Program-made: the position numbers and the translations under genes
Notes under the pieces: generated by a model
What the model saw: the letters and a program-made list of their open reading frames with translations, nothing else
The model's database searches: none
Told to the model about the DNA's origin: nothing
Shown: positions 28,596 through 31,157 of the stretch, piece after piece
How the letters are laid out: each line of letters begins with the position of its first letter
Position numbering within the stretch: the first letter of the stretch is position 1
Assembly (NCBI GenBank): GCA_963774265.1
Contig: CAVZDU010000001.1
Coordinates: 1,442,021 to 1,506,020 of the forward strand
DNA: 64,000 bases
Direction of reading: 5' to 3'
From: an uncultured Chloroflexia bacterium
Lineage (GTDB): Bacteria > Chloroflexota > Anaerolineae > CG2-30-64-16

Positions 28596-31157
28596 ATGCC
28601 TGAACAACCTCCCATCCTAGAGATGAAGAACATTACCAAGACTTTCCCCGGCGTGAAAGCGTTGAGCGACGTAAGCTTTCAAGTCGCCGCGGGTGAGATT
28701 CACTGCCTAGTGGGCGAAAATGGCGCCGGTAAGTCCACCCTTATGAAGGTCCTTAGCGGGGTGTATCCGCATGGTACATACGAGGGGGACATCCTTTTCA
28801 ATGGGCAGGTGCAGAAGTTCTCGGGCATCGCCGACAGCGAGAAGGTCGGCATTGCCATCATCTATCAAGAGCTGGCACTGGTCCCCGAGATGACGGTCTA
28901 CGAAAACATCTTCCTCGGCAATGAGATCAAGAGAGGCTTCACCGTCGACTGGAATGAGACCATCAAGCGGGCGACCGAAGCGATCAAGAAAGTAAAGCTT
29001 GACGTCAACCCGGGGACGAAGGTCAAGGATCTGGGCGTGGGCAAGCAGCAATTGATCGAGATTGCTAAGGCGCTGAGTAAGGATGTGAAATTGCTCATCC
29101 TGGATGAGCCGACGGCCGCCCTAAATGAGGATGACAGCGAGAACTTGTTGAACTTGATCCGTGAGCTGAAAGGGCACGGCGTCTCGTGCGTGATGATTTC
29201 GCACAAGCTGAAGGAAGTCATCGCGATTTCCGATACGGTCACAGTCCTGCGTGACGGCCAGACGATTCGCACCCTGGATGCTCACAAGGGCGAAGTGACC
29301 GAACCTGTGCTGATCAAGCACATGGTCGGCCGCGAAATCAACAATATCTACCCGCAACGGCGGCGCAGCCTGTTCAGTGCTACGGCCGCCGTCGTAGAGG
29401 AAGCCAATGCGGCCGGCGTAAAGGTCATATCGTATGACCGGCTGATCACCGACACCAAGGCGGTGGACTACTATGTGACCTTTGACACCCCTGCCGTCGG
29501 AGCACAGCAGGCGCGGTACCTGGTCGACCATGCGACGGGCAAGGGCAATCCTTTGTATCTATACGCTGGCGCCCCGACTGACAACAACACTTTCTTCCTC
29601 TTGCAGGGCGCATGGGGTGTTTTGCAGCCCAAGATCGCCGACGGCACTTTCGTCATCAAGAATTCAAGCCAGGCTGTCAGCCTCCAGGGGAACGCCGTCC
29701 TGACGCGCGAGCAGCAGAACGCGATTGTTCGCCAGGTCACCACCAACTGGGACCCCCATACTGCCAGGAACCTGGCGCAATCCAATCTGGCTCTTGCCAG
29801 CGCGGCCGACAAAAGCAATGTCTTTGTCCTCGCCCCTAACGACAACACCGCGCGCGCGATTGCCGATGTGTTCGCTGCCGACCAGGACGTCAAGAGCTGC
29901 CTGATTACCGGCCAGGACGCCGAGGAGGCTTCCGCCCAATACATCAGGGACGGCAAGCAGTCCATGACAGTCTTCAAAGATGTGCGCAGCCTGGTGCAGA
30001 CCGCAGTCGACGCTGCCGTAGCTCTGCTCAGGGGCCAGGTCCCTGCGGTCAACGGCAGTTACAACAATGGCGCGATCGATGTCCCCACGCTTCAGTCTCC
30101 GGTTGTCTCGGTAGACAAGGCGAATGTCAAGGCAACCCTGATCGACTCTGGCTACTACGGGGGCGCGGATGCTGCCGGCGCTTCACATGCGCCTGCGTCT
30201 TCGGGCAATCCCGTCGTAGGGGTCGTCCTTCCAACCCAGGATGAACCGCGCTGGATCCAGGATCAAAAGCGCTTCCAGAATGCCTTCCGAGCGGCCGGCT
30301 ACAACGTCGAAATCCTGTTCAGCCAGGGCGACGCGGCCAAGGAGAAAGCCAATGTCAAGGCGCTGCTGAGCAAGGGCATCAAAGTTCTCATCATCTGCCC
30401 GCAGGGCGGCGGAGAGATCGTGCTCGAGGTCAAGAACTGGCACGCCTTCGATCCTGCCTTGGGACGGGAGATCCTCCACGATGTGAACTTCAAGGTCAGG
30501 AAAGGCGAGATCGTCGGCGTCGCTGGCTTGATGGGATCCGGACGGACCGAGCTGGCCCTGAGCCTGTTTGGCAATTCGAAAGGTTACCGGACCAACGGTG
30601 AAATGTGGGTCGGAGGCAAGGAGCAGCACTTCGGCCACCCGCACGACGCCATTGAAGCGGGCGTGGCCTATGCGACCGAGGACCGTAAGGCTGCCGGCCT
30701 GATTCTGATCCAGGACGTCAAGCAAAACGTGACGTTGGCGAATTTGCAGGAAATCGCCCGTCGCGGCGTCGTCGACAGCAACGCCGAGATCAAAATAGCG
30801 GAGGAATACCGGCATTCGCTCAACATCAAGACGCCCAGCATCGAGCAGAAGGTGGGTAACCTCAGCGGCGGCAACCAGCAGAAAGTCTGTATTGCCAAGT
30901 GGCTGTTTGTCAAGCCCAACCTGCTGATCCTGGACGAGCCAACGCGCGGCATCGATGTGGGCGCCAAGTACGAGATCTACACGATTATGGCCAAGCTAGT
31001 CCAGGAGGGCATGAGTATCATCATGATCTCGTCCGAGCTGCCCGAGGTGCTTGGTATGAGCGACCGGGTGTACGTCGTCTCGGCAGGCAGGGTCACCGGC
31101 GAGCTGCCGATCGAGGAAGCGACTCAAGAAAAGATCATGCAGCTGGCTACAAGCTGA
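28596..31157 (+). CDS. GguA/MmsA-type sugar ABC ATPase with internal circularly permuted sugar-binding domain
   Basis: NBD1 (GENGAGKST, LILDEPT, ISHKL), ~346-aa permuted SBP (29367-30404), NBD2 (GLMGSGRTE, LSGGNQQ, LDEPTRG) in one 853-aa ORF. Confidence 0.92.
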   Translation: MPEQPPILEMKNITKTFPGVKALSDVSFQVAAGEIHCLVGENGAGKSTLMKVLSGVYPHGTYEGDILFNGQVQKFSGIADSEKVGIAIIYQELALVPEMTVYENIFLGNEIKRGFTVDWNETIKRATEAIKKVKLDVNPGTKVKDLGVGKQQLIEIAKALSKDVKLLILDEPTAALNEDDSENLLNLIRELKGHGVSCVMISHKLKEVIAISDTVTVLRDGQTIRTLDAHKGEVTEPVLIKHMVGREINNIYPQRRRSLFSATAAVVEEANAAGVKVISYDRLITDTKAVDYYVTFDTPAVGAQQARYLVDHATGKGNPLYLYAGAPTDNNTFFLLQGAWGVLQPKIADGTFVIKNSSQAVSLQGNAVLTREQQNAIVRQVTTNWDPHTARNLAQSNLALASAADKSNVFVLAPNDNTARAIADVFAADQDVKSCLITGQDAEEASAQYIRDGKQSMTVFKDVRSLVQTAVDAAVALLRGQVPAVNGSYNNGAIDVPTLQSPVVSVDKANVKATLIDSGYYGGADAAGASHAPASSGNPVVGVVLPTQDEPRWIQDQKRFQNAFRAAGYNVEILFSQGDAAKEKANVKALLSKGIKVLIICPQGGGEIVLEVKNWHAFDPALGREILHDVNFKVRKGEIVGVAGLMGSGRTELALSLFGNSKGYRTNGEMWVGGKEQHFGHPHDAIEAGVAYATEDRKAAGLILIQDVKQNVTLANLQEIARRGVVDSNAEIKIAEEYRHSLNIKTPSIEQKVGNLSGGNQQKVCIAKWLFVKPNLLILDEPTRGIDVGAKYEIYTIMAKLVQEGMSIIMISSELPEVLGMSDRVYVVSAGRVTGELPIEEATQEKIMQLATS

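Follow-up and report, generated by a model that had tools for sequence, protein, structure and literature searches.

A circularly permuted sugar-binding domain between the two nucleotide-binding domains of a CUT2-type sugar importer ATPase in Chloroflexota

Results

Architecture of the fused ATPase

We analysed a stretch of 64,000 nucleotides (nt), referred to here as the window, from an uncultured Chloroflexia bacterium (assembly GCA_963774265.1, contig CAVZDU010000001.1, positions 1,442,021 to 1,506,020); all coordinates below count from its first letter. The gene at 28596-31157 encodes the ATPase of a ChvE/GguAB-like monosaccharide ATP-binding cassette (ABC) importer, and a complete type-I sugar-binding domain lies within the linker between its two nucleotide-binding domains (NBDs). 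We regard it as almost certain that this insert is real, under selection and derived from a binding protein. Judged from the sequence, it would probably serve as a cytoplasmic ligand-sensing regulator of the ATPase. The gene is made up as follows.

28596..31157, plus strand: whole gene, an 853-amino-acid (aa) sugar ABC ATPase with an inserted binding-protein domain; stop codon 31155-31157
28596..29363, plus strand: NBD1, residues 1-256; canonical Walker A GENGAGKST, Pfam ABC_tran at 23-174, NCBIfam GguA profile over 1-256
29364..29411, plus strand: junction 1, residues 257-272, from the junction alignment; AlphaFold2 helix at 261-272
29412..30155, plus strand: insert C-part, residues 273-520, a segment that in binding proteins comes after ICPQD (BLASTP, Pfam Peripla_BP_4)
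30156..30215, plus strand: Ala/Gly/Ser-rich linker, residues 521-540, from the native C-terminus to the native N-terminus; counterpart of the inter-unit linker in tandem binding proteins
30216..30404, plus strand: insert N-part, residues 541-603, from the first strand to ICPQ (BLASTP, Pfam Peripla_BP_1)
30405..30413, plus strand: junction 2, GGG, residues 604-606, in place of the ICPQD Asp and of the Ser-Asp found in the insert-free linker
30414..31154, plus strand: NBD2, residues 607-853; R-for-K Walker A GLMGSGRTE, signature LSGGNQQK, second ABC_tran stretch

The open reading frame (ORF) was free of internal stops. A Pfam scan of its product (E <= 0.01) returned solely ABC/P-loop families and two sugar-binding-protein families, and no regulatory domain of the MetN/ModC type appeared in it. 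PF00005 (ABC_tran) matched in two stretches (E 3.1e-52), Peripla_BP_4 matched residues 262-481 with profile positions 68-257, and Peripla_BP_1 matched residues 539-605 with profile positions 2-68. Since profile positions 68-257 precede positions 2-68 in the chain, the later part of the binding-protein fold comes first. The insert alone scored 135.3 bits with PF13407, above the gathering cut-off of 35.1. We compared the ATPase by BLASTP with the product of 27281-28414, which is the extracellular receptor of the transporter. The results showed 63% identity between ATPase residues 274-528 and receptor residues 120-375 (E 2e-103), and 68% identity between ATPase residues 541-603 and receptor residues 48-104 (E 7e-23); these E values exclude a chance resemblance. 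The two pieces abut at the receptor's ICPQ/D boundary and so together form one complete unit in swapped order. The insert is 346 aa long and runs C-part, linker, N-part between NBD1 and NBD2. It lies within a cytoplasmic ATPase and lacks a leader peptide, in contrast to the upstream receptor with its MKSK...LFGC leader. An earlier note, made from the sequence alone, had described an 853-aa ORF with two NBDs and a ~346-aa insert without a signal peptide, permuted relative to the upstream binding protein, whose halves sum to one domain cut at the ICPQ loop. The ORF reading, the Pfam profile positions and the swapped BLASTP pieces bear out each of these statements.

The ATP-binding motifs were present and invariant in 73 aligned members of the family: Walker A, Walker B and the signature in NBD1, and the R-for-K Walker A and LSGGNQQK in NBD2. 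The R-for-K variant is typical of CUT2 ATPases. The NCBIfam GguA profile covered two stretches of the fused ATPase with 750.3 bits, below its equivalog cut-off of 810. Ordinary GguA/XylG ATPases of the CUT2 class have ~500 aa and a linker of ~10 residues. The fused ATPase matches them end to end in both NBDs and has 346 additional residues in that linker. Insert-free close orthologues were 507-511 aa long, as measured after trimming to ~42 residues before Walker A, which agrees with the ~507 aa of normal size that the earlier note had expected after removal of the insert. Identity to these orthologues was 72-87% in NBD1 and 70-79% in NBD2.

Junction 1 consists of the end of the old inter-NBD linker, the residues SLFS, which have no counterpart, and the start of the helix that in binding proteins comes after ICPQD. 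At junction 2, G604 was invariant and G605 and G606 were at least 90% conserved in the 73 aligned members, and the conserved GGG is followed by one residue and then by the first NBD2 strand. The insert and the upstream receptor gene were ~70% identical in DNA (85% over the last 92 nt), and the next-best insert paralogue in the genome reached only 62%, with no closer copy there. A 6-residue gap in the N-part of the upstream receptor falls where both the insert and the family consensus retain residues; the insert is thus diverged and keeps a segment that the upstream copy lacks, as had been claimed. No sign of an intein or mobile element was seen in the insert, which matched only binding-protein families in Pfam and had no flanking repeat beyond its likeness to the upstream gene.

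Occurrence of the architecture in other genomes

A whole-protein search found at least 120 proteins of the same architecture, with 805-870 aa, 74-93% identity and query coverage of 94-100%. All of these fused homologues carry PF00005 and PF13407, and they were drawn from ncbi, jgi, ena and logan sources. After clustering at 50% identity, P0181 (850 aa) was the one whole-length representative, and the next entries were tandem binding proteins and ~505-aa ATPases at no more than 56% identity; as the sole whole-length representative at this level, it indicates that the fused family is one tight clade. We also searched a 201-genome sample of the class, with four candidates scored per genome. A whole-length match in a single frame occurred in 8 of the 201 (G000, G097, G194, G007, G135, G169, G200 and G056, the genome of the window included), and within the class the fused gene occurred in f1, f8, f10 and f22, four or more family codes in all. 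The five other genomes of the window's own family gave no match at E <= 1e-100 under the same scoring.

A 66-aa piece spanning junction 2 was compared with species genomes. Eighty loci were kept, and 11 of them (L039-L049), all in records with Chloroflexota-type titles and one titled Candidatus Amarolinea aalborgensis, matched across the junction. An intact NBD1-insert-NBD2 ORF was found in nine of the 11; L047 is broken and L048 ends at a contig edge. In L047 the fused gene is represented by separate NBD1 and NBD2 ORFs, and a further damaged copy, at G056:C13:71192-73702 (L014/L038), has two in-frame TGA codons.

Metatranscriptome contigs of at least 80% likeness crossed junction 1 (X17 records 26 and 27) and junction 2 (X17 record 32; X15 records 15 and 16). 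We did not treat X15 records 11 and 14 as bridging, with 18 letters on the left of junction 1 and 10 letters on the right of junction 2, respectively. The insert-free form was also present in contigs of the RNA libraries, with position 29349 (29339 in X15) joined to 30413 through 28-38 letters. In the DNA run X1 no junction was crossed among the pieces listed, and 835 further pieces lie beyond these. The judgement of the earlier note that the gene is no misassembly stands, with at least 120 proteins of the same architecture, found by the database search it had proposed, and junction-spanning matches in 11 further genome records.

We also inspected other candidate fusions of binding protein and ATPase among 150 representatives. 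P0274 and P0366 were permease fusions, and P0252 was without a binding-protein domain. P0346 (794 aa) is a CUT2 ATPase with an unpermuted Peripla_BP_4-like domain at its C-terminus and no leader peptide; no relatives of this C-terminal domain were found among proteins of 436-1390 aa.

Conservation and predicted fold of the insert

Column conservation over 121 sequences was 0.87 in NBD1, 0.85 in the insert C-part, 0.54 in the linker, 0.87 in the insert N-part and 0.86 in NBD2. The ratio of nonsynonymous to synonymous substitution rates (dN/dS) was calculated by the Nei-Gojobori method for eight pairs. It was 0.12-0.18 for the insert, 0.055-0.137 for NBD1, 0.056-0.106 for NBD2 and 0.28-0.76 for the linker, values that are rough because dS was near or above 1 in most pairs. 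The insert is under purifying selection, and both a neutral ratio and a lack of homologues, which together would have told against the earlier note, are contradicted.

We compared the residues of the insert with those of receptors. The motifs PRW, YDR, D.N, NWD, PND, GQD and FKD were invariant in the 73 aligned members; the earlier note had listed the same set as kept, and this holds except for the middle N of its DNN, which is variable in the insert. In the C-part, 91 columns held one and the same invariant residue across inserts and tandem binding proteins, as read from a MAFFT alignment of the two. In the N-part this was true of 23 columns, compared between the inserts and each of the two units of tandem proteins in an alignment of extracted units. 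These shared columns take in the loop motifs PT..EPRW, YDR, D.N, T.W, PND, G.DAE and KD, which we take to be ligand-contacting loops from the structures of ribose- and xylose-binding proteins; the literature searched for the pocket of ChvE yielded no list of residues. Only three columns held a conserved but different residue in inserts and receptors, and nine receptor-invariant positions were relaxed in the insert.

An AlphaFold2 model based on the 73-sequence alignment had a mean predicted local distance difference test score (pLDDT) of 79.3 and a predicted template modelling score (pTM) of 0.61, with the blocks of the insert at 82-96. Confidence was low at residues 245-249, at 524-536 (pLDDT below 50) and in part of NBD2 (696-752). 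This last region, the helical subdomain of NBD2, had a pLDDT of 29-53 in the model of P0001 despite its conserved sequence, which may come from a shallow alignment of closely related members. Foldseek gave 4rxu as the best match of the model in the PDB (E 5.8e-34, template modelling score 0.74 by target); its alignment is sequential and so covers one of the two parts at most. The insert is thus predicted, from sequence and model, to have a complete two-lobe binding-protein fold, and the structure prediction proposed in the earlier note came out in its favour. A complex prediction of the insert with NBD1 and NBD2 as separate chains gave a score of 0.06 against a mark of 0.32 and speaks neither for nor against a contact.

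Origin of the insert from tandem receptors

We searched residues 230-640 (411 aa) against proteins of 469-1493 aa and obtained 1256 matches, of which 120 were listed. All of the 120 listed were two-unit (~720 aa) or three-unit (~1050-1130 aa) sugar-binding proteins, and each gave one collinear local alignment over ~81% of the 411-aa query at 62-73% identity. Overall, the insert was 60-74% identical to tandem proteins and collinear with them through the linker. This collinear alignment with the middle of the tandem proteins indicates that the insert runs from the C-part of unit 1 through the inter-unit linker into the N-part of unit 2. It is a slice of a tandem gene, one unit long and out of phase with the units; its order is a case of 'permutation by duplication', and the domain was then inserted. 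The permutation had earlier been likened to engineered design; it turned out to be no special design, the insert being a collinear slice of tandem binding proteins that are common in the clade.

A tandem receptor lay directly upstream of the fused ATPase in G097, G007, G200, L040, L041, L043 and L049, and a single-unit receptor in the window, L039, L042 and L044. Among the L loci, four of the seven with an intact gene there had a tandem receptor, and the eighth, L047, had a broken one. In 113 tandem receptors the two units were a median of 96% identical, with 66 of the 113 at 95% or more. Tandem receptors of different organisms (P0009-P0123) differed by 25-35%, and one-, two- and three-unit versions exist. 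The units of one tandem receptor paired together on the tree. The likeness of units within a protein and their pairing on the tree indicate that they are continually homogenised (concerted evolution), and receptor copy number probably changes easily. The inserts formed one separate clade (Shimodaira-Hasegawa-like approximate likelihood ratio test, SH-aLRT, 99), and they have escaped unit homogenisation. The insert N-part had a mean identity of 0.649 to unit 1 and 0.652 to unit 2, the units being homogenised within proteins.

NIYPxRQRxxF... and ...ICPQG-GGEVV were the junctions throughout the fused rows (19 of 19), P0208, P0190 and P0243 differing slightly. The ancestral linker NIYPxRxHKx-SDEVV was present in 12 of 12 close insert-free rows and likewise in more distant ATPases. 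Because the junctions are common to the fused rows while the insert-free rows keep the ancestral linker, the sequences point to a single origin of the insertion. Precise secondary loss was considered as the source of the insert-free orthologues and ruled out, as their linkers match the ancestral pattern of distant outgroups.

A recent move of the insert out of the upstream gene of the window was also considered, since 377 and 346 aa sum to 723 aa, the size of a tandem receptor. It was ruled out, because relatives with an intact tandem receptor also have the insert, the insert is 60-64% identical to cognate receptors, and single-unit receptors lie upstream in L039, L042 and L044, which are other assemblies.

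The native termini of the type-I binding-protein fold lie far apart. In the insert, cutting a single loop, ICPQ/D, made its two sides the new termini, which are therefore adjacent, as domain insertion needs; the inherited flexible linker would hold the native termini together.

Conflict between the NBD tree and a single origin

On a tree of the NBD columns, fused and insert-free genes were interleaved, and well-supported branches forced at least three changes (L020-L038, P0124-P0254). The approximately unbiased (AU) test rejected monophyly of the fused genes on these columns (p 0.00055, log-likelihood difference 94.6) for a group that was defined after the tree was seen. The insert and its junctions speak for a single origin, in conflict with the interleaved NBD tree, which suggests recombination between fused and insert-free alleles in the flanking NBDs. 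We infer from the sequences that such recombination would be the simplest reconciliation.

Operon partners and neighbourhood

The operon runs in the order Peripla_BP_4 receptor, ATPase, BPD_transp_2 permease. GguA, ChvE and GguB were the best NCBIfam models for its three genes, all with scores below the equivalog cut-offs. The genes around the fused ATPase are as follows.

27281..28414, plus strand: single-unit ChvE-like sugar-binding lipoprotein, 377 aa, upstream (Pfam Peripla_BP_4; NCBIfam ChvE 238.4 bits, below the cut-off of 460)
31280..32506, plus strand: GguB-like permease, 408 aa, downstream (Pfam BPD_transp_2; NCBIfam GguB 417.6 bits, below the cut-off of 450)
22167-23189, minus strand: Peripla_BP_4 protein of a sensor module (Pfam)
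23233-24393: response regulator with two receiver stretches and a LuxR-type helix-turn-helix (Pfam)
24396-25475: BPD_transp_2 permease of the sensor module (Pfam)
25525-27060: ABC NBD fused to a HisKA_3/HATPase_c histidine kinase (Pfam)

The closest solved relative of the upstream receptor was a sugar-binding protein of Chloroflexus aurantiacus (PDB 4rxu, E 2.6e-157). The receptor of the window is single-unit, whereas several relatives with a fused ATPase have a tandem receptor. The transporter-like sensor module occupies 22167-27060, directly upstream of the sugar operon, and homologues of its NBD-kinase fusion were found near the sugar operon in G009 (46%), L047 (69%) and L049 (43%).

The next operon contains a two-unit tandem binding-protein gene at 32769-35121, which belongs to a different subfamily (~29% identical). 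Its units are 97-100% identical in DNA with a spacing of 1047/1048 nt, and the 1-nt difference puts them in two frames; this split could be a real frameshift or an assembly indel. The ATPase of this second operon (35199-36806) is distributed over at least three frames (35199-35789, 35767-36048, 35975-36280 and 36294-36806), and is either a pseudogene or a product of indel errors. The source genome is 84% complete with 5.65% contamination and consists of 10 contigs.

Discussion

The fusion is real, the domain is under purifying selection, its fold is that of a binding protein, it lacks a signal peptide and its conservation is receptor-like. Together these make a cytoplasmic sugar sensor, as the earlier note had inferred, the most reasonable reading of the insert. 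In this mechanism, the insert would remain cytoplasmic, and its receptor-derived pocket would bind the monosaccharide that has been imported. Its four-residue tether to the first NBD2 strand would let the ligand state alter the ease of NBD closure, with tight coupling to NBD2 and loose coupling to NBD1 through the low-confidence segment 245-260. Accumulated internal sugar would most likely inhibit uptake; trans-inhibition is the most economical logic because the sensed ligand would be the substrate itself. Feedback inhibition specifically by the transported sugar is a tentative proposal, and the direction of control is a guess. We suggest, with similar reserve, a natural allosteric switch in which a tandem receptor was cut out of phase and inserted between the NBDs of its own transporter, so that internal sugar gates a CUT2 importer. 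The insert may also be a cassette that homologous recombination has moved between fused and insert-free alleles, and such movement would account for an insert that forms one clade and NBD parts that do not.

Several points weigh against a regulatory sensor. Close orthologues work without the insert, which is thus dispensable for transport. No new insert-specific invariant position was found in the C-part, and no signature of a new NBD interface was visible. Binding-protein units conserve the Asp of ICPQD at 95% or more, but the cut removed it from the insert, whose pocket or lid may therefore differ. With a pTM of 0.61, the inter-domain geometry of the AlphaFold2 model is unreliable. The RNA libraries whose contigs cross the junctions may contain DNA, and these contigs carry neither strand nor level. 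The roughness of the dN/dS values belongs here as well.

A receptor-derived cytoplasmic regulatory domain on an ABC ATPase is a published concept. The C-terminal regulatory domain (CRD) of the cyanobacterial ATPases NrtC, for nitrate, and CmpC, for bicarbonate, is cytoplasmic, homologous to the system's own binding protein NrtA, fused to the ATPase and a regulator of transport, and it retains the ligand pocket (PMC13287603; PMC10945777). It is described there that the CRD of CmpC/NrtC binds nitrate and contacts the NBDs (PMC13287603), that in CmpBCD it locks both NBDs until nitrate releases it, and that in NRT it contacts one NBD and recruits PII (PMC13287603; PMC10945777). The fused ATPase resembles these proteins in that its extra domain is homologous to the system's own receptor, here with 63% and 68% identity. 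The CRD of NrtC/CmpC belongs to the NrtA-like family (~30% identical to NrtA), is collinear with it, sits at the C-terminus of a single-NBD subunit and senses an anion (PMC13287603); unlike it, the insert is ChvE-like (Peripla_BP_4), circularly permuted and placed between two NBDs of one chain. The precedent demonstrates that mechanisms of this class exist, and also that sequence does not reveal whether the effect is positive or negative.

Trans-inhibition is described for MetNI and ModBC, where the transported substrate binds a cytoplasmic ATPase domain and the NBDs are held apart (PMC13287603). The MetN (C2) and ModC domains have unrelated folds and are C-terminal, one on each of two identical subunits, and the likeness to the insert is a functional analogy only. 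The insert also differs from an ordinary type-I sugar-binding protein in its swapped fold order, in having no signal peptide or lipobox and in not being extracellular. Tandem receptors of Anaerolineae are secreted lipoproteins of whole units, whereas the insert is a slice across two units.

Out-of-phase cutting of a duplicated gene yields, in engineered switches and in the 'permutation by duplication' model, a permuted domain whose new termini are adjacent and which sits inside a host protein. Engineered switches made from permuted or inserted binding proteins follow the same construction principle, and the fused ATPase is a natural, conserved case with the tandem intermediate next door. The earlier note had known of no described example. 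For an architecture of NBD, permuted binding protein and NBD this holds in the full-text literature searched; for the concept it does not, given NrtC/CmpC (PMC13287603; PMC10945777). What is new is that the domain is of the sugar type, in a CUT2 ATPase, permuted and between the NBDs.

The insert might regulate in the opposite sense, with the NBDs locked when it is empty and released by ligand as in CmpC, or it might mainly dock a signalling partner, as NrtC does for PII. We consider this unlikely, though it keeps some weight: both modes are documented for the sole ATPase-fused, binding-protein-derived domains published (PMC13287603; PMC10945777), and the conservation and dN/dS data show selection on the domain and its residues, not the sign of the effect. 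The sensor module of binding protein, permease, NBD-histidine kinase and response regulator adjoins the operon in the window and in some relatives. However, it also stands beside an insert-free operon (G009) and was not seen within ~7 kb upstream of three other fused loci (L020-L022), and no partner for docking was identified. If the importer were activated by the very sugar that it had brought in, uptake would run away, so this mode would need another ligand, yet the pocket pattern is unchanged.

It is improbable that the insert is a tolerated passenger or structural spacer, left by a recombination accident in a permissive linker and folded only to spare the ATPase. Such an origin would fit the function of insert-free orthologues that are 72-87% identical in NBD1, the lack of insert-specific invariant positions among those compared and the confinement of the family to one tight clade with a single representative at 50% identity. 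Selection for foldability does not account for receptor loop motifs that stay invariant in the insert, though, and the dN/dS of the insert is close to that of the NBDs, with only the linker relaxed. The insert has moreover been kept across the four or more family codes f1, f8, f10 and f22. An assembly or gene-calling artefact (a misjoin, a collapsed repeat or the read-through of separate genes) might be suspected from the completeness and contamination of the genome and from the neighbouring operon with its 1-nt frame shift in a repeat and its ATPase split over three frames, but it can be dismissed, since the same architecture, with the same junctions, occurs in at least 120 proteins from varied sources and as nine intact ORFs in other genome records, and the genome holds no insert paralogue closer than 62%.

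To our knowledge, CUT2 sugar importers of the ribose, xylose, galactose and arabinose types have no built-in regulatory domain, and the post-translational control of sugar ABC uptake that we know of concerns mainly MalK-type ATPases. If the proposed role is true, a receptor copy within the ATPase would couple the internal sugar level to uptake in a new manner, and would be the first substrate-feedback device known for the CUT2 class of sugar transporters. Abundant filamentous Chloroflexota belong to the group in which the insert occurs, and the record of one junction-spanning locus bears the title Candidatus Amarolinea aalborgensis. For protein evolution, every stage of 'permutation by duplication plus insertion' can be seen together: receptor genes of one, two and three units, the slice taken out of phase, and the host gene with and without the insert. 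For protein engineering, the fused ATPase may serve as a natural model on which to base a sugar-gated ATPase, and its insert as a permuted sugar-binding scaffold ready for use.

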